Shown: positions 18,447-55,464 of the stretch, piece by piece
Numbering within the stretch: the stretch's first letter is position 1
Layout of the letters: each line of letters begins with the position of its first letter
Assembly: GCA_017134395.1 (NCBI GenBank)
Contig: CP070993.1
Span: 608,945-672,944, forward strand
Length of the DNA stretch: 64,000 bases
Reading direction: 5' to 3'
From: Candidatus Kaiserbacteria bacterium
GTDB taxonomy: Bacteria > Patescibacteriota > Minisyncoccia > Phycocordibacterales > UBA2100
Position numbers and translations under genes: made by a program
Notes under the pieces: model-generated
The model's input: only the letters and a program-made list of their open reading frames with translations
What the model was told of the DNA's origin: nothing
Databases searched by the model: none

Positions 18447-18516
18447 ATATTTACTTTGTGAGAGTTATTTATTAATTTTATCATAGTAGAGAAAAAACAA
18501 GCTGTATTTTAATCTA

Positions 18517-18548
18517 AATCACCAGAACGCTAGGCGTTCTGGTGATTT
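18517..18548. terminator. perfect 13-bp-stem hairpin atcaccagaacgc-tag-gcgttctggtgat
   Basis: lies at the distal edge of the tRNA-Ser-associated element. Confidence 0.4.
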
Positions 18549-18551
18549 AGG

Positions 18552-18767
18552 GGAGAGAGGGATTCGGTCAGGAGTCCGTGAAAAGAATATTCGCTCGGCT
18601 CATTACTTTTCTACGGCTCACGACCCTGACTCGGCGACAAGCACTCGCTCCGCTCGTCTTGTATACCGCCTCCGTCTTTCGAATTCCTTTCTCGTCCGTA
18701 AAACGTAAAAAACCCAACGCTATTCGCGTTAGGGTTTTACGTTTTAATGCGGAGAGAGAGGGATTCG
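18552..18767. repeat. tRNA-Ser-associated mini-element / att-relic: imperfect about 15-bp direct repeat ggagagagggattcg (18552-18566; copy in tRNA 3' end 18753-18767)
   Basis: contains terminator 18700-18745 and a motif (minus strand ggaattcgaaagacggaggcggtatacaagacga...gagtgcttgtc) about 80% identical to the element after tRNA-Met. Confidence 0.4.
18700..18745. terminator. tRNA-Ser terminator hairpin, about 18-bp stem
   Basis: aaaacgtaaaaaacccaacgc/gcgttagggttttacgtttt followed by U-run on the minus strand. Confidence 0.6.
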
Positions 18768-18836
18768 AACCCTCGAGGGAGTTTCCCCCCTATATCCTTA
18801 GCAGGGATACGCTTTCGACCACTCAGCCATCTCTCC
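18750..18836 (-). tRNA. tRNA-Ser (anticodon GCU), type II with long variable arm
   Basis: minus-strand GGAGAGAUGGCUGAGUGGUCGAAAGCGUAUCCCUGCUAAGGAUAUAGGGGGGAAACUCCCUCGAGGGUUCGAAUCCCUCUCUCUCCG; anticodon loop CUGCUAA. Confidence 0.85.
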
Positions 18837-37140: not shown

Positions 37141-37250
37141 AAAGATATGCACACTTGTGCACACATTTGTGTTGCCTACGCGTGCAAATATTTTTTACAC
37201 GGTATACTTTAAGCAGGTCGAGTACATTACAACTCCACAACCATTATTTT

Positions 37251-37499
37251 ATGGCAACAAAAAAAACTGCAAAAAGAAAAACAGCTGCAAAGCGAAAGCC
37301 AGCAGCAAAGAAGAAGGTAGTTCGTAAGGCTGTTAAAAAGAAGCCAGCAGCAAAACGAAAGCCAGCAGCAAAGAAGAAAGTGGTGAAGCGAAAGCCAGCC
37401 GCAAAGAAAAAGGTTGCAAAGCGAAAGCCTGCAGCAAAAAAGAAAGTAGTGAAGCGAAAGCCAGCTGCTAAGAAAAAAACTGCAAAGCGAAAGCGATAA
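37251..37499 (+). CDS. lysine/alanine-rich histone H1-like DNA-binding protein (KRKPAAKKKVV repeats)
   Basis: 82 aa, mostly K/A/P tandem repeats encoded by 33-39-nt DNA tandem repeats; strong terminator follows. Confidence 0.7.
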   Translation: MATKKTAKRKTAAKRKPAAKKKVVRKAVKKKPAAKRKPAAKKKVVKRKPAAKKKVAKRKPAAKKKVVKRKPAAKKKTAKRKR

Positions 37500-47237: not shown

Positions 47238-47308
47238 TGTCGGATCGTCTAATGGTAGGACGACTGGTTCTGGTCCAGTTAATCTAGGTTCGAGTCCTAG
47301 TCCGACAG
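47238..47308 (+). tRNA. tRNA-Gln (anticodon CUG)
   Basis: UGUCGGA-UC-GUC-UAAUGGUAG-GAC-G-ACUGG-UUCUGGU-CCAGU-UAAU-CUAGG-UUCGAGU-CCUAG-UCCGACA-G; U1:A72 as in bacterial tRNA-Gln; its 3' end overlaps the recombinase gene stop. Confidence 0.85.
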
Positions 47309-48985
47309 CAGACTTGAATTAGTAGCATCTAATTCACCAGAATACCCTTGTTTTAACTGGGGTATTTTAGGTTCGAGCGTAGCATTTAGCGACACAGACA
47401 AATCATACGTACTTCGTATACCAGAAAGCGGAGAAGGTACGGAAACATTGAGTTTTTTGTCTTTTAGTGTGAGGTTCGAGCCGAGAATGGAAAGTACCTC
47501 GCGTTTGGTGTTATTGTCACCATTCTTAAACTTTTCACGTGCGTTTTGGGCAAAGTTGAGATAGTTATTAGCAACGCCAACCCAGTCAATTGCACGTTCA
47601 TGTAGTCCTTCCACATTCTTACGCACAACTCGCAACTCTTTCTCCACTTGTGCTCGTGTCTTGAGCAACTGTTCAGAAGTGATTTCATCACTTGCTCGCA
47701 TCATCACAAGGTTGTCCAACTTGTTTAGCAACTCAGTCTCTCTTTTTCTATTTTGTTGAGTTATGTGGTCCTGCTCGTGTATTTCATTACGGTGTATATA
47801 TTTCAGAGCTTCGACTGCCCATGCATAAAATTCAGTAGGTATTGATACTTTCTTTATGGACTCAGATATTTGATTTTCCAACACAGATTCCTCGATGTAT
47901 CTTTGCGAACATACTCCCTTCTTCTTGGTACAGCGGTAATAGGTCTTGTCGATGATGCTAGGTCTCTCCATTTCAGATACGTCTATGTGGCAGGCAGGGC
48001 ATTCGGTTTGAGTACGAATTGAGAACTTCTTTTTGCATTGAGTACATATAGCTTGCAACTTACGTTCTGCGGTCACTGCACAACCACACTCACCACAGGA
48101 TAAAGAAGATCGGAAGGGGAAGTCATACTTATTAACCTTTGTCGGGCGCCCATGCTTGCCCAGAAGCGTCTGTACGCGGTTGAACTCATCTTCTGTAATC
48201 AGTGCTTCGTGCTTGCCAAAGAAACGTTCCTTGTAACCTTCTTCACCATTCCAATCAAATACGCCAAAGTAAAATGGGTGAGTGAAAGTATTGTAAAAGG
48301 TATTTACTGAATAGGGCTTTCCACTTCTATTCCTTAGCCCCAACGAATCAGCCTCTCTTTTGATATCAGGTATAGAGTATGAACCTGTAAGCATCTTCTT
48401 CCAGAGAGATTTTACTATTTTGAAACGTTCTGCGTCCTTCTCTATCTCTTGGTCGCCCATGTTGTAGTCTTTTTTGTGTTTGTACCCCATGGGCAGGACT
48501 GACGCAGGATACCAACCACGCTTCGCCTTGTTCCGTTGACTTCGCTTCACGTCCACACTCAAGTCGTTCACGTATTGGGTAGACATACCAAGCTCAACCG
48601 CCATCATCAATACGTTGTCCCAAGGATTGTATTCCCGTGAGTAAGTTTGTAGGTGTTGTATAGTTCCTTCTTGGAGCATCCAACTGATTTGTCCGCCATC
48701 TACAGGGTTACGTGCAAGTCGGTTAATCTTCCAACACAAGATACCGTTTGCCTCTCCTTTTTGGATACGTCCAAGCATTTTGTTGAACTCAGGTCGTCCG
48801 CTAGGTGTTTTTGCGGATTTGGATTCGGTGATGGTTTCTATTACATTCAAATCCAAGTTCTCAGCTAGACGCATCATTTCAGAAGTTTGGTCTTCAATTG
48901 AAGCCATTTGCTTGTCCTCACTGTCGGTAGACTTTCGAACGTACAGTATGTATTTGAGATCTTTCTGTTTTGGGGAGGTCATCAT
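47297..48985 (-). CDS. large serine recombinase (resolvase/invertase catalytic domain, recombinase domain, zinc ribbon)
   Basis: N-terminal YILYVRKSTDSEDKQMASIEDQ with nucleophile Ser; central recombinase domain; CGECGC...C...CPAC zinc-ribbon; 562 aa. Confidence 0.85.
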   Translation of the reverse strand: MMTSPKQKDLKYILYVRKSTDSEDKQMASIEDQTSEMMRLAENLDLNVIETITESKSAKTPSGRPEFNKMLGRIQKGEANGILCWKINRLARNPVDGGQISWMLQEGTIQHLQTYSREYNPWDNVLMMAVELGMSTQYVNDLSVDVKRSQRNKAKRGWYPASVLPMGYKHKKDYNMGDQEIEKDAERFKIVKSLWKKMLTGSYSIPDIKREADSLGLRNRSGKPYSVNTFYNTFTHPFYFGVFDWNGEEGYKERFFGKHEALITEDEFNRVQTLLGKHGRPTKVNKYDFPFRSSLSCGECGCAVTAERKLQAICTQCKKKFSIRTQTECPACHIDVSEMERPSIIDKTYYRCTKKKGVCSQRYIEESVLENQISESIKKVSIPTEFYAWAVEALKYIHRNEIHEQDHITQQNRKRETELLNKLDNLVMMRASDEITSEQLLKTRAQVEKELRVVRKNVEGLHERAIDWVGVANNYLNFAQNAREKFKNGDNNTKREVLSILGSNLTLKDKKLNVSVPSPLSGIRSTYDLSVSLNATLEPKIPQLKQGYSGELDATNSSLLSD

Positions 48986-49012
48986 TTAAGTATAACTAAT
49001 TAAGACGGCAGT

Positions 49013-49249
49013 TTATTTAAAATTTAAGGGGATGTTGTTGATTAGAGCAACGACTCGTATCAACTTCAAGCCCTCTTCAAGTGCCTGTTCGTATGTAATG
49101 TTTTGGTCAAAGTGCTGTTTGTGTAGTTCTTGAAATTCAAGTATCTGTTCTTCTTCTAACATTGTTTTTGCTTTATAAAAAATTCGAAACCTTACTGCGT
49201 ATTCTTGTATAAAATTTCGTCTGTGAGAGTCGATTGTGCTTCCTTGCAT
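49013..49249 (-). CDS. hypothetical protein (78 aa), element cargo
   Basis: tight spacing with flanking genes. Confidence 0.45.
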   Translation of the reverse strand: MQGSTIDSHRRNFIQEYAVRFRIFYKAKTMLEEEQILEFQELHKQHFDQNITYEQALEEGLKLIRVVALINNIPLNFK

Positions 49250-49536
49250 TATGTCTCGACTTTCTCTTTTAAATCCTTCTGAGAGGATAAATGACTCTCG
49301 GATGTGTTGTCTTCACGCCTATTAGAAAGTTCATGGAGAAAGCGAACTATCTGGTTTGCTTCTTCCTTTGGATAATCCTCTATATCAACCAGTTTGTAAA
49401 ACCAATCCCGTATTGCTCTACGCGAGAATCCTTGGTATTTAGTTGCTTTGGCAAAGCAAGTATAGCTACTCCACCCAAGATTGTTTCTGTCGTTCTGCTC
49501 TTCGATTATTAGAAATTTCCTCTTTATTGATCGCAT
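49249..49536 (-). CDS. hypothetical protein (95 aa), element cargo
   Basis: start overlaps stop of upstream RHH ORF (translational coupling). Confidence 0.5.
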   Translation of the reverse strand: MRSIKRKFLIIEEQNDRNNLGWSSYTCFAKATKYQGFSRRAIRDWFYKLVDIEDYPKEEANQIVRFLHELSNRREDNTSESHLSSQKDLKEKVET

Positions 49537-49667
49537 GTTTTGAATTCCTTGCTAATTAAATTGGCTAATAGCTGAGACATAGTGGTACCAGATTGTGCTG
49601 CCTCGACTTTTAAAAGTTGGTGACACTCCACTGGTATACGCACTTGTTTGGTTAGTCGTTCTTTCAT
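49524..49667 (-). CDS. ribbon-helix-helix (CopG/Arc/MetJ-like) DNA-binding protein, 47 aa (not in ORF track)
   Basis: MKERLTKQVRIPVECHQLLKVEAAQSGTTMSQLLANLISKEFKTCDQ: beta-strand then two helices; SD AAGGAA 8 nt upstream; stop overlaps next gene start. Confidence 0.55.
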   Translation of the reverse strand: MKERLTKQVRIPVECHQLLKVEAAQSGTTMSQLLANLISKEFKTCDQ

Positions 49668-49950
49668 GTATAGATTCCTTATTTGGTAAATTTGTCGACC
49701 TTTATATCCCGCTCCCTTGTATATATTCCTCTCTTCCCTTCACTCCTACCTCCTGAATGGTCATCCCCCCGTAAGAATCTCGTCTTACTCATAGGTTGGT
49801 CGTAGGTTTCCACATGTGTGTCACTACTCTATTACTTCTTTCGAAGCATTCAGTATGGTTATCGCTCGGTTGAGCCGCTGTCTTTATATGCTCTTTTTGA
49901 GTCCGCATATAACACCAACGATGTGCTTCCAAGACTTAATGCATAAGCAT

Positions 49951-49975
49951 CAAAAAACGCCCCTGTGAGGGCGTT
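49951..49975. terminator. hairpin aacgcccc-tgtga-gggcgtt with U-run on minus strand (ends gene 50029-50703)
   Basis: 8-bp GC stem. Confidence 0.55.
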
Positions 49976-50028
49976 GCCCGTATTATACTCCCCAGTGTTC
50001 AGAGAAAGTTCAGGAAATGTCCCGAACC

Positions 50029-50703
50029 TTACTCTAAGAATAATCCCCAACCGTGTTCGCGCTGATTTCTTATTAATCGTTCACCCGTGGTACGTCGTAG
50101 TTGTGTTTGCAGCTCAGAAATGTCCTGTCCAGTCCTTCTGCGCCAATTATCCGTGCCCTCTAGCCCAAGAGCATCTGCTAACTCTTCAGCTACTACGTAG
50201 TTTCCCACACTTTCAAATAGACGAAGAAAGAGGCTCTTGTACTTCCTTGTGAAATTTATTTGCCTTTGCTTGTAAGTAATTCGATTGTCTGCATATAAAG
50301 AAAAGTCTCCCGCTGATCTGACAGCAACTGTACTGTACGCTTCATCTGTTTGAGCAAGCTCAGGATTTGCTTCTACTTCTTCCTGCACGCGTTGGTACTC
50401 CTGTCGTAATGTGTCCGCATTAGTGACAGTATAGCTTAACCAGTATTCATCACTAAGAACTGCAGAACCGTCATCTTCATATAGAACTTGTCGCCCGTTA
50501 ATCTCCATCGGTATTTGATCCAACATCTCGGTGTGTATGGCGCCCATTTCTTCTAGTAGTTGAATGGCGCGATTTAAATGGTGCCAGTCTAGTCCGAGTT
50601 GGGAATTAACCATTGAATATAAACCATGCGCAGGGTTGGGATTTCGGACATGTTCATCTAAGATGCTACGTAAAACCAAATGATAATTTCCAGTTTGACT
50701 CAT
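50029..50703 (-). CDS. putative DNA-binding protein with C-terminal OmpR/PhoB-type winged helix
   Basis: C-terminal ...YVVAEELADALGLEGTDNWRRRTGQDISELQTQLRRTTGERLIRNQREHGWGLF resembles the trans_reg_C domain. Confidence 0.45.
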   Translation of the reverse strand: MSQTGNYHLVLRSILDEHVRNPNPAHGLYSMVNSQLGLDWHHLNRAIQLLEEMGAIHTEMLDQIPMEINGRQVLYEDDGSAVLSDEYWLSYTVTNADTLRQEYQRVQEEVEANPELAQTDEAYSTVAVRSAGDFSLYADNRITYKQRQINFTRKYKSLFLRLFESVGNYVVAEELADALGLEGTDNWRRRTGQDISELQTQLRRTTGERLIRNQREHGWGLFLE

Positions 50704-51140
50704 TCATCTAGGATACATCCATAAGCACTTTTTTGAAATATGTAAATTTTTTTACACGGGTATATTCTCTTACGTATATACTTTGTACCCCATACGTACC
50801 CCCATTAGTGTCTAAAAGAGTCGGTAAGTGGCTTTGTTGAAGGATACGTACCGTTGATATTGCTCAGTATCTACGCTGTTTCTTCACGGTACCGCCGTGT
50901 ACCGTGCGGTATGGAATAAAGAGTTGTATAATGGCTTTACAACTGAATATTTGCCTTTAATTAGGCGCGCCTAAACTTTGTGGATTATCCATAAAGCATG
51001 GTGCAAAAAACACAACGAAGATAGAAAACCCATCATCAGGGCGCTTCGTTGTGTTATGCGGGGAAACTCGCATAGGAGTCTTCGGACTCTACTGGTGGTG
51101 GGCTTTGTGTTGCTCACCTCTTATTAGCTAACTATCAATT

Positions 51141-51578
51141 ATGAAGTTAACTTTGCAACACGTAATTATCGGGATAGTAAGTCTGCTCGTGATCGGGGCA
51201 CTCTACATACGTTTTAATCAAAGCGATGTGGGTAAAAATCCTGAGGTGTCATTTGAGAAAAAGCAAACTTGCGCTGATGTTCTCGTTGATGAACAAGAAT
51301 CAGATGCAAGGTACAACGATAAAATTCGCAATAGCGGATATCACACAGAGGTGCATTACAGCCCTGCTTTACAAACTTGTTTGATTGCAAAAGTACATAT
51401 ATATCTTTCAGTCGAGGAGGACGATATTGATGCAGCGGGCTTGGCGACATATACGATTACTGATGCTTTCACAGGCAAAACGTTTTTCACGCACAAGGCT
51501 TTGTTGGGTGATGAATCAGCTACAGCAACAGAAATGTTTAACAACAAAATGGAAAAGCTTATTGAAGAAGGAGTATGA
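51141..51578 (+). CDS. hypothetical membrane-anchored protein (145 aa), element cargo
   Basis: N-terminal TM/signal anchor. Confidence 0.5.
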   Translation: MKLTLQHVIIGIVSLLVIGALYIRFNQSDVGKNPEVSFEKKQTCADVLVDEQESDARYNDKIRNSGYHTEVHYSPALQTCLIAKVHIYLSVEEDDIDAAGLATYTITDAFTGKTFFTHKALLGDESATATEMFNNKMEKLIEEGV

Positions 51579-51772
51579 ACAAGTATCTAACAATAAGTCT
51601 AATCAGTGCGCTTGTATTTATTTTCTTCTCATTAACGTCATTGTATCCATATTTGTACGACTTTGTTTTCGGCGATTATATCGGAGGATTCGACTTGCTG
51701 TTTTGGGGTGCAATAGTGAGCGGTTTGATTTCAGTCACTTCCGGAGTAATAGCATTTATCAAACGAGCCTAA
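51575..51772 (+). CDS. small 2-TM membrane protein (65 aa), element cargo
   Basis: ATGA overlap with upstream gene; two hydrophobic helices. Confidence 0.5.
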   Translation: MNKYLTISLISALVFIFFSLTSLYPYLYDFVFGDYIGGFDLLFWGAIVSGLISVTSGVIAFIKRA

Positions 51773-51830
51773 ATTACGTCTTTTTGTACTGACAATACTG
51801 TAGGGTGAGTGTAGAATCATCTGTAAGCTT

Positions 51831-53414
51831 ATGATTCAAGAAATTAAAAAACACTTTTTTCGCCTTACATATGCTTTGAAGTATAGTAGGGTTTTGCAGA
51901 TAGCTAGAAAAATATTCCCATCAAAGCGTACTAAGATGGAAGAGTATACTGCAGAGTATGCAAGATACTTTGATAATCTGTTCGCAAAGGCCGCTAATGC
52001 GGGAGGCTTTCAGTATCTATGCACCATTCTCAGGGTAGAAGGTCTGACTTCAGGGCATTGGGACGCTTTTGTAGAAGCCGAGGAGGCGTCTAGAGATATA
52101 AGCAATATTTTGAGAAAGACCAAGGGTAACAGAAAAGAGAAACGTGCAATCAGATTAGGATTATTTTTGTACTGTCACCTAACAGAAATGTCAGCACCTT
52201 ATGAAATATTGGCAAATTTGTTGAGAGGTTGTCAAAATGCACCATATAGCGTGTACCCGTTCCATCATCTGGTGCGAATTGTTGGTGGAAAGAATACTCA
52301 ACCTTGGGAGAAAAAACGTCTACCACCTTCGCCAGCAGCAAAAATAGCGCATCTCGAAGAGTTGGGTAAAGAGTGTGGAGAAGAGGAATTAAACCAGATC
52401 ATAAATGAGTTTTTCCGTAACAATGTTAGAAACGCTTTCTACCATTCAGACTACGCACTTTCGGATGATGAGTTTCGAATAGTCGAGGGTTCACAAATGT
52501 TGGGTAAGGAAGTTATAAAAATTGAAGAACTTTCAGAGTATCTAACCAAATGTTTCGCCTTCTATTCCGCCTTTTTTATCGTTTACAATAATATAAGACG
52601 CGGTCTCGCGTATGGGAAAAAATTTCACAGATGGCCAAATTATGAGGTGTTGGAATTTTTAACGGACGAAAAAGAATTAAATGGTTTTAAAGTGCATTTC
52701 CCGAACGGTTCTCATGCGATGTTCCAAAGGAAGAAATACGGCGGTACAGATGGTTACAATTTTATGTTCGAAAAAGAAGGGATTGGCTTACAGGTTGGGG
52801 ATTTAAAGAAGTATCACGAGGCAACAGATTGGTTTGTCGGAGATGAACCTTTTGATGAGTTTGGAACGCGTTACAATCCTTACGGCAAGTGGCAGCCAAT
52901 AGTTTTTTCTAGAGATAGCGATCGCATCCAAAAGATGGCAAGAGATGCCACCGAAGATAGAGATGCCGAGGGTTGCCTTTTTTACATATACGCCACAGGG
53001 CATAAGGCAATTGAATTTGTTTTAAAAACAAATAAACCAATTACTTGGTTTTCTTCTATGCGCGGACCTTTTTGGTCAGTAAAAAAGAACTTTATTGTTA
53101 AGAAATGCGATCCAGTTGGCGGTGCTTATATATACGATGGCACAGTTTTTCTAGACGGCAAATCAGAAAAAGATGTTCTTGCTGGGTTAGCACGAATCAG
53201 TGAATTTGTTACAGCTCTGGAGTCAAAAGGGATTGAGGTTAAATCAAGATTGAAATATCAGATGTATTCCGATTTGTCTGATAGGGCAAAAGACGGAGGT
53301 GATGGAACATTCTCTGTTACCATAAGTATGGATGATCCACGCAGTACTCTTGTCGCAAACAACCTGGGCATGTTCCCTAAGAGCGATTGGAAAATAAGGC
53401 CAGAATGGATATGA
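51831..53414 (+). CDS. large hypothetical protein (527 aa) with HEPN-like RxxxxH motif; candidate Abi/defence-type cargo
   Basis: FFRNNVRNAFYHSDYAL (R-x4-H) in a helical N-terminal region; C-terminal about 270 aa unassigned. Confidence 0.5.
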   Translation: MIQEIKKHFFRLTYALKYSRVLQIARKIFPSKRTKMEEYTAEYARYFDNLFAKAANAGGFQYLCTILRVEGLTSGHWDAFVEAEEASRDISNILRKTKGNRKEKRAIRLGLFLYCHLTEMSAPYEILANLLRGCQNAPYSVYPFHHLVRIVGGKNTQPWEKKRLPPSPAAKIAHLEELGKECGEEELNQIINEFFRNNVRNAFYHSDYALSDDEFRIVEGSQMLGKEVIKIEELSEYLTKCFAFYSAFFIVYNNIRRGLAYGKKFHRWPNYEVLEFLTDEKELNGFKVHFPNGSHAMFQRKKYGGTDGYNFMFEKEGIGLQVGDLKKYHEATDWFVGDEPFDEFGTRYNPYGKWQPIVFSRDSDRIQKMARDATEDRDAEGCLFYIYATGHKAIEFVLKTNKPITWFSSMRGPFWSVKKNFIVKKCDPVGGAYIYDGTVFLDGKSEKDVLAGLARISEFVTALESKGIEVKSRLKYQMYSDLSDRAKDGGDGTFSVTISMDDPRSTLVANNLGMFPKSDWKIRPEWI

Positions 53415-53430
53415 GGTACTGTTTTGATAT

Positions 53431-53610
53431 ATGCTTTCGATAGAAAAATGCAGAGAACTGATAGAAGATGATGAGAAGTATTCTGATGAGCAAATTATTG
53501 AAATTAGAGACGCATTAGATCAGCTCGCAAGTATTTTTGTTGACAAATATTTTAGCGAAAAGTTTCCTGAAGAAAATGTGGCTCTTGGATCAGGTGGCGA
53601 GCGAGCGTAA
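53431..53610 (+). CDS. possible small acidic protein (59 aa)
   Basis: ATG..TAA ORF just under the ORF-track cut-off; helical/acidic composition; weak SD. Confidence 0.3.
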   Translation: MLSIEKCRELIEDDEKYSDEQIIEIRDALDQLASIFVDKYFSEKFPEENVALGSGGERA

Positions 53611-53648
53611 TTCTTGCAGGAATATAAAATCGGGAGTAATGTGATTTT

Positions 53649-54053
53649 ATGACAATTGCATCAAAAATCGTTGTCGGCCTGCTGTCAGTTGGAGCTATTA
53701 CGGCAGTTGCTTCGGTTGGCTCAGACAGTGCAACAATCCAGCCAGTTGAACACGTAAGAGTTGAAACTAGAGCGGTAGACATACCTGATCCAGTACACAA
53801 GGTTAAAAAGGAGGTGATACAGGATGCGGAACCTAAAGAGGTGGTTGAAACTAAACCGACCTCTATTCCTGCATATACACCTCCTGTGTCTAATTGCCAT
53901 CCGAGCTATTCAGGTTGCCTTAAGGCAAACGCGAGCGACTACGACTGTGCAGGAGGGTCGGGCAACGGTCCGTACTACACAGGTACAGTTCAGGTATTAG
54001 GTCCAGATGTATTCGGTTTGGATAGAGACAAAGATGGTTGGGGTTGCGAATAA
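53649..54053 (+). CDS. secreted protein with C-terminal Excalibur-type calcium-binding motif
   Basis: signal peptide; ...GLDRDKDGWGCE (DxDxDGxxCE). Confidence 0.6.
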   Translation: MTIASKIVVGLLSVGAITAVASVGSDSATIQPVEHVRVETRAVDIPDPVHKVKKEVIQDAEPKEVVETKPTSIPAYTPPVSNCHPSYSGCLKANASDYDCAGGSGNGPYYTGTVQVLGPDVFGLDRDKDGWGCE

Positions 54054-54079
54054 TAGATTTACGGGAGTATACTGCCATC

Positions 54080-54229
54080 ATGAACACGGATACTGAGTAT
54101 TCTGACGAAGTTAAGGAAATAGCGGAAGACTACGGCGTTGACCTCGAAGAAGCAGAAGAGATAGAGGATCTATCTAACGAACTTGGAATTGACTGGGATG
54201 ACGCTCATATGGTGTGGGAAGAAAGTTAA
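54080..54229 (+). CDS. small acidic hypothetical protein (49 aa from ATG 54080)
   Basis: GGGAG SD upstream of the internal ATG; ORF track opens earlier at 54038. Confidence 0.35.
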   Translation: MNTDTEYSDEVKEIAEDYGVDLEEAEEIEDLSNELGIDWDDAHMVWEES

Positions 54230-54231
54230 GT

Positions 54232-54969
54232 ATGAAAAAAACAACAATCTATATCTTAATTGGTACTGTGGTATTGGCTGGAGGGCTTTTCTATTTCTAC
54301 TCAGGAGGCAGTAATGAATTTGAAATTTCTCCCACGGTATCTAATGAAAACTCGTCACCATCAGCACGTTTACAGGTAACAGAAGAAGGGCGGTACGCAG
54401 ACGACTACTTCTCTCACTTGGCGGTAGTTCATGAAAAACTTAGTAATTTTGGTGAGCTGGAGATAAAGAATGAAGACGAGACAATGGAGGCGTTTTCGAC
54501 ACTTCTATATGATCTTGGAGAGATAATTAGCGCTGTAGATAACGCAGCCATTGAATTGGGAGGATATAGGGATTCTACGAGTGAGAACGTGGCGCTTCAT
54601 TCAGATGCTGTAGTTGTAGGGTACAAATCTCTAGGACTTTTGTATGAAGAATACAGAGTTGCACATGAGGAGTTGCTACGTTCAACAACAGAACAGGGTG
54701 TTGCCACTTACACAATCTCCACGAGTCGCATTCTGTCAGGAATAAACAATACACTTAAGACTTTCCCGCAGCTGAGCATGTTTCTAGTCCCAGCACTCTT
54801 GAAAGAGGAGAACGGCGAAGAACTAAATGCCCAATTAAGTAACGCCTTAGTTCAAAGGTTAGAGGCACTCTTCGGAGACGAAATAATAGAAGGCATGGCG
54901 GCAGGACAGCATGCTTTTGTTGCCTCTGGTGCGATAGTAAGACAACTGTTGCTTGGTGAAGAAATATAA
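54232..54969 (+). CDS. hypothetical membrane-anchored/secreted protein
   Basis: N-terminal MKKTTIYILIGTVVLAGGLFYF signal anchor; ORF track opens at 54214. Confidence 0.5.
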   Translation: MKKTTIYILIGTVVLAGGLFYFYSGGSNEFEISPTVSNENSSPSARLQVTEEGRYADDYFSHLAVVHEKLSNFGELEIKNEDETMEAFSTLLYDLGEIISAVDNAAIELGGYRDSTSENVALHSDAVVVGYKSLGLLYEEYRVAHEELLRSTTEQGVATYTISTSRILSGINNTLKTFPQLSMFLVPALLKEENGEELNAQLSNALVQRLEALFGDEIIEGMAAGQHAFVASGAIVRQLLLGEEI

Positions 54970-54980
54970 AAGATAGCAAA

Positions 54981-55412
54981 ATGAAGCACCACATGAAAAT
55001 ATCAACGGCAGTTTCACTTGTTCTTGCAGCTTTTGTTGGAGGGCTTTTGCTAGACTCGTCCATCTTTGGTCTAGGCGAAGCGGGATTCTCGAAGAAAGTG
55101 TCTTGTTCAAGTTTTAAGGAACAGGCAGAAAGTCGTATAAAGGACTACTACGCACCATCAGAAGTAGTAAGCTATACACCTGATGAGATTTTCTTCAGTA
55201 CAAGTAAAGAAACCTGTATAGCAGCATGGAGTGGTGACTGGTTAAACGAGAACGGTATGTTTAAGCAGGTTGCCATATTTGATGCGGTTAGTAATCGGGA
55301 TATATACTCAGATATGGTGTATCGTCCCTTTGTTAAGGAAAGTGAAGACATTGATAATTTCTATCGCCGAACTGTGAATAGGTACGATGAGCTGCTAGTA
55401 GAGTTAAGATAA
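54981..55412 (+). CDS. hypothetical secreted protein (143 aa)
   Basis: N-terminal signal-like hydrophobic segment. Confidence 0.5.
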   Translation: MKHHMKISTAVSLVLAAFVGGLLLDSSIFGLGEAGFSKKVSCSSFKEQAESRIKDYYAPSEVVSYTPDEIFFSTSKETCIAAWSGDWLNENGMFKQVAIFDAVSNRDIYSDMVYRPFVKESEDIDNFYRRTVNRYDELLVELR

Positions 55413-55464
55413 AATAGTAGTTCGAGCAATTTGCAGAAAAGTATTACAGGTGTAGATTTAGAGT

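Follow-up and report, generated by a model that had tools for sequence, protein, structure and literature searches.

Behind the gene for tRNA-Ser(GCU) of a Candidatus Kaiserbacteria bacterium lies, on the same strand, a small non-coding unit that is built in part from copies of the tRNA gene's own 3′ end. The locus belongs to a stretch of 64,000 nucleotides of contig CP070993.1 (positions 608,945 to 672,944 of the forward strand), which is called the window below and whose first letter is position 1. An earlier note on this DNA had described, on the minus strand, tRNA-Ser followed by a terminator hairpin, a motif, and an imperfect repeat of the tRNA 3′ end, and had pointed to a tRNA-Met gene with a similar appendage. 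All of these parts can be located (Table 1), with the quoted motif at 18634-18685 (−), and the unit behind tRNA-Met has the same order and orientation. What that description missed is a segment complementary to the tRNA 3′ end, placed between the hairpin and the motif, and two further units in the window, associated with the transfer-messenger RNA (tmRNA) gene and with tRNA-Gln.

The general layout of the units is tRNA positions 1-55, a segment TS, a hairpin T1, an arm TS′, a core, a second copy of TS (the downstream direct repeat, DR2), and the native trailer. TS comprises the tRNA gene from position 56 to its 3′ end together with 2-20 nucleotides of trailer, and the arm is the reverse complement of TS and reaches as far as T54. 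An intact tRNA gene remains in place, and the former 3′ end lies farther downstream as DR2. Units measure about 180-230 bp and have no protein-coding capacity.

In the Ser unit, the flanks of T1 prolong the palindrome formed by the upstream direct repeat (DR1) and the arm, and folding of the unit sets the arm against the tRNA 3′ end as GAGAAAGGAATTCG against CGAATCCCTCTCTC. To judge from its sequence, T1 is a terminator-type hairpin that would serve tRNA-Ser. The second hairpin, T2, is probably the original terminator of this gene, by analogy with two loci described below (L027 and L121), because the native trailer comes after DR2 in L027. Core helices P2 and P3 are what the earlier note called the motif. 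The claim that a stretch of about 60 nucleotides is shared with the Met unit, at roughly 80% identity, was right as to the sharing and the degree (38 of 45 positions, or 84%, over a 45-nucleotide motif counted on the pairwise alignment), but the conserved stretch is really about 110-150 nucleotides long. Likewise, terminator and motif are both present, but an anatomy of these two parts leaves out the inverted copy of the tRNA end and a core that forms a three-way junction. The similarity holds against shuffled controls: the core pattern GAAAGACGGAGnnGGTATACAAGACGA occurs exactly twice in the window, where 100 shuffles give an expectation of 0.

Table 1. Features of the four units and of the tRNA-Gln island, in window coordinates
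Feature	Position	Strand	Basis or sequence
tRNA-Ser(GCU), intact	18749-18836	−	ARAGORN; Rfam tRNA 62.9 bits; sequence
Ser unit, DR1: last 19 nt of tRNA-Ser, C56 to 3′ end	18749-18767	−	cgaatccctctctctccgc
Ser unit, T1: long hairpin and T run ttaaaacgtaaaaccctaacgcgaatagcgttgggttttttacgtttta	18699-18748	−	Terminator scan (stem 18713-18733); sequence
Ser unit, arm cggacgagaaaggaattcgaa: imperfect reverse complement of tRNA-Ser 54-73	18678-18698	−	15/22 ungapped; T-loop part perfect
Ser unit, core helices P2 and P3: agacGGAGgcgg-uau-ACAAGAC-GA-GC-GGA-GC-GA-GUGCUUGU-cgcc-GA-guc	18628-18677	−	P2 pairs and P3 tip pair covary
Ser unit, core helix P4: hairpin with variable tip, end ...cacggactcctgac	18567-18627	−	Compensatory changes in 6/7 modelled pairs of main helix (helix 7)
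Ser unit, DR2 cgaatccctctctcccc: displaced copy of tRNA-Ser C56 to 3′ end	18550-18566	−	16/20 identical to tRNA
Ser unit, T2: second hairpin taaatcaccagaacgcctagcgttctggtgatttag	18514-18549	−	Sequence
Met unit, whole	36461-36829	+	R1 64.4 bits, E=3e-17
Met unit, tRNA-Met(CAT)	36461-36535	+	ARAGORN
Met unit, DR1	36517-36539	+	Exact 23-nt repeat caaatctgcctcccgacactaga, also DR2
Met unit, T1	36540-36583	+	
Met unit, arm gtcgagggcagaattgaa	36585-36602	+	Folding
Met unit, core	36603-36764	+	About 55 nt inserted between P3 and 3′ strand of P2
Met unit, DR2	36765-36787	+	Exact copy of DR1, 23 nt
Met unit, T2	36788-36829	+	
tmRNA unit, diverged subfamily	965-1158 (R1 match 965-1116)	−	R1 39.9 bits, E=7e-10
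Gln unit, fourth, diverged	55871-56058 (R1 match 55914-56060)	+	R1 18.5 bits, E=0.002
tRNA-Gln(CTG)	47238-47309		
Large serine recombinase gene	47297-48985	−	Resolvase, Recombinase, and Zn-ribbon domains; abuts tRNA-Gln
LOOT RNA	50968-51090		Rfam

A Family of Units in Patescibacteria

The broader motif search that the earlier note had proposed brings out the same core behind 33 anticodon classes of tRNA and behind tmRNA, at no fewer than 120 loci of Patescibacteria. The family was collected with an exact 20-base pattern from P3 in species-representative genomes; loci from this collection and from related searches are numbered with the prefix L. Among the matches listed, all genuine ones come from Patescibacteria, mostly Paceibacteria, with Kaiser-, Yonath-, Nomura-, Taylor-, and Campbellbacteria as hosts, and two pattern matches outside this phylum (L010, L025) have no covariance-model match. 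A tRNA end on the same strand lies 70-84 nucleotides before the anchor in 79 of the 126 pattern copies (62 loci); when tRNAs further upstream are counted, 95 of the 126 copies have one, and it is these that represent the 33 anticodon classes.

The covariance model R1, for which 41 units were used, finds 135 units in the 710 kb of the pattern-matched loci. Within the window it finds four: the Ser unit (128 bits), the Met unit, the tmRNA unit, and a diverged unit of tRNA-Gln. Several loci carry stacks of different subfamilies behind a single tRNA (three in L052, three within 8 kb in L067, and further cases in L004, L101, and L024), and some of the stacked units are decayed; identical tandem arrays are found in L017, L062, and L075. 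Searches of the full-text literature, including searches for the motif sequence itself, found no description of the units, and the family of inserts at tRNA and tmRNA 3′ ends is previously undescribed.

The Folded Core

On the strand of the tRNA sense, the core of about 110-150 nucleotides contains two conserved hairpin arms, P2-P3 and P4, which in the fold model meet the helix formed by TS′ and TS in a three-way junction. Helix P2 consists of GAC/GUC and GCGG/CGCC around a GGAG/GA loop, with a UAU bulge beside it. Hairpin P3 has the form ACAAGAC-GA-GC-GNA-GC-GA-GUGCUUGU and is invariant across the collected units, whereas the tip of P4 is variable and is often a repeat of the GAGCGNAGCGA motif. 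The GGAG/GAG loop, the UAU bulge, and the tandem GA are conserved as unpaired nucleotides.

The pairing covaries. Paired cells make up 95.1% of alignment A2 and 76.1% of its shuffled versions. Its covariation score of 0.525 compares with 0.16 for shuffles and with no more than 0.107 for slid partners, and 22 of the 33 pairs show compensatory changes. The two strands are not equivalent, for under RNA energy parameters all 58 of 58 cores give a more stable fold on the sense than on the antisense strand (-38.6 versus -30.4 kcal/mol), and P2-P4 hold 19 G-U pairs against 9 A-C mismatches. It is therefore the sense strand that folds, whether as RNA or as single-stranded DNA. P3 ends in a C(GNA)G triloop with flanking tandem G-A in 69 of about 100 tips (~70%), and such triloops are reportedly, from the work of Hirao and Yoshizawa on d(GCGNAGC), the signature of unusually stable DNA mini-hairpins. 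Because of this, folding of the core at the DNA level is possible.

Repeats, Arm, and T1

The copy of the tRNA 3′ end that starts at C56 recurs some 165-200 nucleotides downstream in the pattern copies. It is identical to the tRNA in at least 16 of 20 positions in most of the 79 units, and exact over 23 nucleotides in the Met unit and over 19 in the Gln unit. In the units of four loci (L055, L053, L117, and L090) TS includes 11-20 nucleotides of locus-specific trailer, which suggests that the local target was the template.

The arm is complementary to the tRNA from position 54 to about 70, perfectly so over 17-20 nucleotides in several units. The match is best over the T-loop and T-stem, with mismatches in 4-10 of 48, and weaker in the acceptor part. 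At positions other than 54-55 that distinguish the tRNA from DR2, the arm sides with the tRNA in 50 cases and with DR2 in 7. The arm is therefore templated on, or kept matched to, the live tRNA, and the helix of arm and DR2 is not maintained by compensation; compensatory evolution of the arm with DR2 was looked for in the same counts and is not seen. In some subfamilies (L001, L004, L101, and L024) an extra hairpin splits the arm precisely at the boundary of acceptor and T-stem and produces a cloverleaf-like shape.

The two flanks of T1 can pair with each other, and they lengthen the palindrome of DR1 and arm. A strong terminator often follows DR2 as well, and no match to a sigma-70-type promoter was seen between T1 and the arm in the window units. 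The hairpins of the window have features of their own: an apex AACGC-(3-5 nt)-GCGTT is common to Ser T1 (18713-18733), Ser T2 (18525-18540), and the Gln-unit hairpin (55890-55912), and the T1 hairpins of the Met and tmRNA units have AAAAACCG...CGGTTTTT in common. Terminator hairpins thus seem to form genome-specific families that are independent of the core subfamily.

A peculiar case was observed in L084 (about 930-1130, minus strand), where a tRNA-Cys-like gene enters a unit at the T-loop (ggttcgag-ttagga-ctcgaaag); DR1 and T1 are absent and the downstream repeat is foreign. The arrangement suggests that the inner part of the DR1-T1-arm palindrome was deleted and the tRNA-Cys gene thereby destroyed.

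Evidence for Insertion

The earlier note had reasoned that a segment found universally behind tRNA-Ser in relatives would speak for a trailer of that tRNA. The segment is not universal. Two relatives whose ComF is 67-68% identical (L121, L123) have the same pilM-comF-tRNA-Ser neighborhood without the unit; R1 matches neither, and tRNA-Ser is directly followed by tctaacagctagcacgagg. The trailer tctaacagcta.cacgag, which follows the tRNA in L121, follows DR2 in L027 (UBA2163), and the unit therefore lies between the tRNA body and the original 3′ end with its trailer. Moreover, near-identical cores stand behind different tRNAs in one genome (tRNA-Thr in L055 and tRNA-Asp in L067, with 95% core identity), so that cores have been transferred or swapped from one tRNA locus to another, with arm and repeats local to each site.

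The preference for a common mobile origin over a tRNA-specific trailer, which the earlier note had drawn from two tRNAs, is thus borne out by the many tRNA classes, the stacks, the tandem arrays, the unit-free orthologs, and the displaced trailer. Mobility of the units themselves is what this distribution suggests.

At a more distant comF locus (L125, ComF 54% identical; 4655-4770), the first 24 nucleotides of tRNA-Ser, ggagaggtgccagagtggtcgaat, are repeated about 100 nucleotides upstream of the intact tRNA. This looks like an insertion or duplication of a different kind, in the 5′ half of the tRNA.

The Other Units of the Window and the tRNA-Gln Island

Two of the four window units lie on each strand. 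Three of the eight tRNA genes have one, as does the tmRNA gene, a density of roughly one unit per two to three tRNA genes. In the Met unit, folding sets the arm against the tRNA 3′ end as GTCGAGGGCAGAATTG against CAAATCTGCCTCCCGAC. The tmRNA gene (1159-1548) directly precedes the third unit, which has a T1 hairpin, an arm gtgggaatcgaa, and a core with a different P3. It contains a partial, 11-nucleotide copy (cgattcccgcc) of the tmRNA 3′ end, and the tRNA-like domain of tmRNA is therefore also a target. The Gln unit is made up of a hairpin, an arm tctttcgggttggactcgaa, and a core, and its end (56040-56058) is an exact 19-nucleotide copy of the 3′ end of tRNA-Gln(CTG) (47291-47309), 8,749 bp away.

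The Gln unit is separated from its tRNA by an island of about 8.7 kb (47297-56058), of which the unit and the 19-nucleotide repeat form the right boundary. The large serine recombinase gene is followed by the LOOT RNA and by open reading frames (ORFs) without Pfam matches. Before the Gln-unit hairpin, at 55843-55870, there is a sequence resembling the tRNA-Gln 3′ end (P-half-like). Its position ahead of the unit suggests that the island is a separate element, inserted between tRNA-Gln and a unit already present.

The order tRNA, recombinase, unit is similar in L046 and L111. Serine recombinases occur at four of 121 loci (the window, L046, L111, and L052) and are only 25-29% identical to one another. 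L128-L130 have close homologs of the window recombinase (67-76%) at tRNA-Gln, but no unit lies closer than 10 kb, and the recombinase family is common in Flavobacteriia. The large serine recombinase was for these reasons rejected as the mobilizer of the units. In L046 the recombinase gene beside tRNA-Gly(CCC) has a perfect inverted repeat of about 120 bp on either side (456-575 and 2020-2145); the outer ends of the two copies abut GCACAA and TTGTGC, and a second, nested inverted repeat follows (ttgtgctgtattgctatg / catagcaatacagcacaa). This segment may be invertible, transposon-like, or an artefact of assembly.

Genes near the Units and Database Searches

No ORFs lie inside the units, and all-against-all ORF clustering over 120 loci revealed no recurrent protein family near them. 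The clustered neighbors are syntenic housekeeping genes (MiaA, RluD-like, LepA, and the CCA-adding enzyme). Possible partners were seen in a YraN-like nuclease (10 loci) and in small GIY-YIG proteins (about 6 loci) but rejected, the association being too weak and explicable by synteny. No reverse transcriptase gene was found beside units at the 120 loci, and no recurrent recombinase or HUH nuclease gene is linked to them.

The window has two tRNA-Met genes, and the space between them holds a small stand-alone GIY-YIG nuclease gene (35945-36283, plus strand; Pfam E=7e-19), immediately upstream of the tRNA-Met that bears the unit. GIY-YIG genes are also near units in L096 (directly after DR2), L095, L024, and L120. 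Downstream of the Met unit, an ORF at 37155-37499 (plus strand) encodes nearly nothing but lysine/alanine-rich repeats (KKPAAKRKPAAKKKVV...) and resembles histone H1-like or nucleoid proteins.

At the gathering threshold, Rfam 15 returned only tRNA, tmRNA, and LOOT for the window, and with E up to 10 the Ser and Met units gave only noise. Partial resemblances to hammerhead and hairpin ribozymes, group II domain V, P4-like strings of RNase P, SRP-like strings, and C/D boxes are specific to subfamilies and were rejected on inspection. Phage and plasmid collections had no blastn match to units. Three patterns run against IMG/VR gave 0, 0, and 17 matches; the 17 viral contigs (L133-L149) carry the pattern of 17 specified bases GTGCTTGTCGNCGAGNCNGGG with neither a covariance-model match nor a tRNA, and they are probably chance matches or an unrelated conserved sequence.

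Interpretation

Stacks, tandem arrays, patchy presence, and the recurrence of one core behind many tRNAs point to a non-autonomous mobile element. The reading favored here, though held only tentatively, is that the unit is such an element, anchored at the T-loop and mobilized by an enzyme in trans, with its tRNA-specific parts copied from the target. The T-loop is taken as the anchor because the repeats always start at C56 and the arm reaches T54; tRNA and tmRNA genes would receive the insertion at T55/C56, in the conserved T-loop sequence, presumably with a cut between positions 55 and 56. The conserved core would be the moving part and the recognition module for the enzyme. The core would be copied by a polymerase (a DNA polymerase, or a reverse transcriptase working on the sense RNA), which might switch template at the palindromic T-loop sequence (TTCGAA), so that the 3′ segment of the target would be copied once directly and once, by folding back, in inverted form. 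The tRNA-specific parts would then not be carried between sites, and retargeting would be automatic. Such a copy-choice origin of the arm is preferred because arm, T1 flanks, and repeats are local while the core is shared, and the modularity of T1 and core is consistent with template switching.

Several observations sit uneasily with this proposal. The genes of the 120 unit loci include no candidate for the enzyme. Two metagenome scans showed neither an excised form nor strain polymorphism of filled and empty sites: the scan for the Met locus had no match, and that for the L077 locus yielded two contigs, both filled. The very high conservation of the core across a bacterial class could reflect a host function rather than a selfish element, and the conservation of P3 is in part a selection effect, since the units were gathered by an exact P3 pattern. 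The arm has about 5 mismatches to the tRNA in 20 positions and DR2 about 1 in 18, an imbalance that simple neutral decay of segments born together does not predict. Nor is T1 easily placed. That it travels with the core was rejected, since T1 similarity does not track core similarity; among cores of at least 0.9 identity behind different tRNAs, mean T1 identity is 0.62, which equals background. That it is the native terminator does not hold in general either, T1 being similar to what follows DR2 in no more than about 10 of 50 units and not being the native terminator in L027.

A stronger form of the proposal, which we regard as rather unlikely, is a self-retargeting insertion system directed by nucleic-acid pairing, in which arm and repeats would be rewritten for each target. 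The core would recruit the enzyme in trans, and the arm would pair with the T-arm and acceptor strand of the tRNA gene.

Recombination of a preformed molecule, the chief competing explanation, offers another route to the same order. A circle of TS, T1, TS′, and core, probably single-stranded and folded as a dumbbell, could enter by Campbell-type strand exchange at T55/C56, its TS/TS′ stem mimicking a duplex target or serving as a long DNA guide for a host or helper recombinase or an HUH nuclease; its kin would be the CTX phage and other integrative mobile elements exploiting XerCD (IMEX), integron attC sites, and IS608 with its miniature derivatives. A single strand exchange would yield exactly tRNA-TS-T1-TS′-core-TS-trailer. 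The agreement of the arm with DR1 rather than DR2 is as expected if DR1 and arm are the element's own stem, the C(GNA)G tips (69 of about 100) mark stable DNA mini-hairpins, and arrays and stacks fit repeated integration into a regenerated site. However, a separate lineage with matching TS and TS′ would be required for every one of the 33 or more tRNA targets, and this is hard to square with near-identical cores behind different tRNAs of one genome (L055, L067), with a T1 that does not travel with the core, and with locus-specific trailer inside TS (L055, L053, L117, L090). No recombinase or HUH gene is linked to the units, and with two window units per strand no bias for the lagging-strand template is visible. 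We consider the circle unlikely. It is very improbable that the units are remnants of larger islands (attL, scar, attR) of a tyrosine or serine integrase, left after internal deletion. A direct repeat from T-loop to 3′ end is indeed the classical identity block of tRNA-integrating islands, and the Gln unit does stand at the far end of a serine-recombinase island, with a similar order in L046 and L111. Yet deletion would have had to leave more than 130 units of the same size, with the same folded core, behind 33 tRNA types. The recombinases, in 4 of 121 loci and 25-29% identical, do not form one set; those of L128-L130 lack a unit within 10 kb and the family has Flavobacteriia homologs; and the P-half-like sequence at 55843-55870 indicates that the Gln unit was there before the island.

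The features of the core that suggest RNA lead to a different proposal, namely that the units belong to a host family of non-coding RNA. A structured sense RNA would have a protein-binding core and an arm antisense to the T-arm and acceptor of its own tRNA, and would act as guide, decoy, or processing module; copies would arise by local duplication and be kept alike by selection and gene conversion. The helix of arm and DR2 would mimic an acceptor-T minihelix, and RNase P and RNase Z could trim the RNA. Strong core covariation with conserved unpaired nucleotides, the better folding of the sense strand (58/58), arm complementarity that is kept best at T-loop and T-stem, above the acceptor part, the cloverleaf-like shape produced by the extra hairpin (L001, L004, L101, L024), and the frequent strong terminator after DR2 all fit. 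On the other hand, stacks of two or three different subfamilies, some decayed, and identical tandem arrays are hard to reconcile with a host function, as are unit-free orthologous loci and the presence of a unit at just three of eight window tRNA genes plus tmRNA. The arm does not covary with DR2 (7 versus 50), so that the minihelix is not kept by compensation, and the window units have no sigma-70-type promoter between T1 and arm. On balance a host RNA is decidedly unlikely.

Many copies of this element are found in Patescibacteria despite their tiny genomes. If it is mobile, as favored here, it inserts into essential tRNA genes while leaving them intact, and it is matched to dozens of different targets without a gene of its own. 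The enzyme, once identified, would represent a new mechanism of site-specific insertion, possibly guided by nucleic-acid pairing. Were the self-retargeting form correct, nature would possess programmable site-specific insertion of a hitherto undescribed kind, in which one small element could colonize every tRNA and tmRNA gene and leave it undamaged. A host function would instead imply a new class of tRNA-linked RNA in a poorly understood phylum. In any case, repeats and long palindromes beside tRNA genes affect assembly, tRNA annotation, and the calling of island boundaries, and R1 can be used to annotate the units.

Comparison with Known Systems

Each of the known systems compared, as far as it could be tested, has a defining feature that the units lack. 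The closest in placement are the islands and prophages whose tyrosine-integrase att sites are said by Williams (2002) to lie in tRNA and tmRNA genes, with the T-loop as one sublocation. Like the units, they occupy the 3′ side of the gene, are flanked by a direct repeat from the T-loop past the 3′ end, regenerate the tRNA, displace the old 3′ end with the native trailer, and occur in tandem or stacked. The units, which share the flanking repeat, differ in having no integrase gene within them, in their size of about 200 bp, in the recurrence of one core behind at least 33 tRNA types, and in the extra inverted copy of the target and the conserved folded core.

Short non-coding, multi-copy intergenic hairpins that depend on an enzyme in trans and are often near terminators are also familiar as REPIN/REP sequences, mobilized by REP-associated tyrosine transposases (RAYT), and as MITEs (miniature inverted-repeat transposable elements). 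In contrast to these, the units have no terminal inverted repeats of their own: their ends (an A-rich T1 start and ...GTGAC) are not inverted repeats, the sole inverted repeat is the target-derived pair of DR1 and arm, and the duplication is at least 17-23 nucleotides long, where MITEs have one of 2-10 bp. They further differ in their strict specificity for tRNA and tmRNA 3′ ends, their long target-derived direct and inverted repeats, and their covarying three-way-junction core.

Known structured RNAs come no closer. In tRNA-like RNAs (the tRNA-like domain of tmRNA, YrlA, and viral tRNA-like structures) the T-loop is present, whereas in the units, although the arm/DR2 helix of the fold mimics acceptor and T stems, the junction takes its place, and there is no Rfam match with E up to 10. 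Retrons and other RNAs linked to reverse transcriptases share the closing helix, but the 120 loci have no reverse transcriptase gene and Rfam gives no retron match. Box C/D guides share an antisense arm and tandem G-A, but inspection of alignment A2 revealed neither C (RUGAUGA) nor D (CUGA) boxes and no K-turn geometry with a 3-nucleotide bulge in P2 or P3.

The IS200/IS605 elements and their miniature derivatives are, like the units, small, strand-specific, and rich in hairpins, and contain an internal segment complementary to the insertion site; the units have hairpins close to either end and an invariable left flank of ...GGTT. Their scaffold and the 3′ stretch identical to the right flank recall the make-up of an omega RNA and its guide. 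The guides of IS608, however, have 4 nucleotides, against 15-20 in the arm, and the target copy of the units lies downstream of the presumed cut and is present twice. The units show a duplication, whereas insertion of IS200/IS605 elements, 3′ of a fixed 4-5-nucleotide motif, leaves none. No TnpA or TnpB gene is linked to the units at these loci, and Rfam gives no match, the IS605-associated families included.

Integron attC sites and the attP(+) of CTX phage are alike in that a stem of two inverted copies mimics a duplex target and the enzyme is not encoded. The target of the units is, however, a tRNA T-arm rather than attI or dif, the stem sequence differs from tRNA to tRNA, and no evidence ties the units to IntI or Xer. 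There is no GTTRRRY/RYYYAAC box; only the GTT of the T-loop resembles an R box, and the repeat starts after TT, not after G. Strand integration of the attC/CTX type would nonetheless give the observed order of the units.

The Mauriceville and Varkud retroplasmids of Neurospora form hybrid cDNAs with tRNA sequences and integrate at tRNA genes. They are mitochondrial plasmids that encode their own reverse transcriptase, whereas the units have none in cis, and the copy in the units stops at T54 and includes the trailer rather than CCA. In both cases element sequence is joined to the antisense of a tRNA 3′ region, a junction that a reverse transcriptase could produce by switching templates; the element RNA has a tRNA-like end in both; and both would integrate through homology with a tRNA gene.

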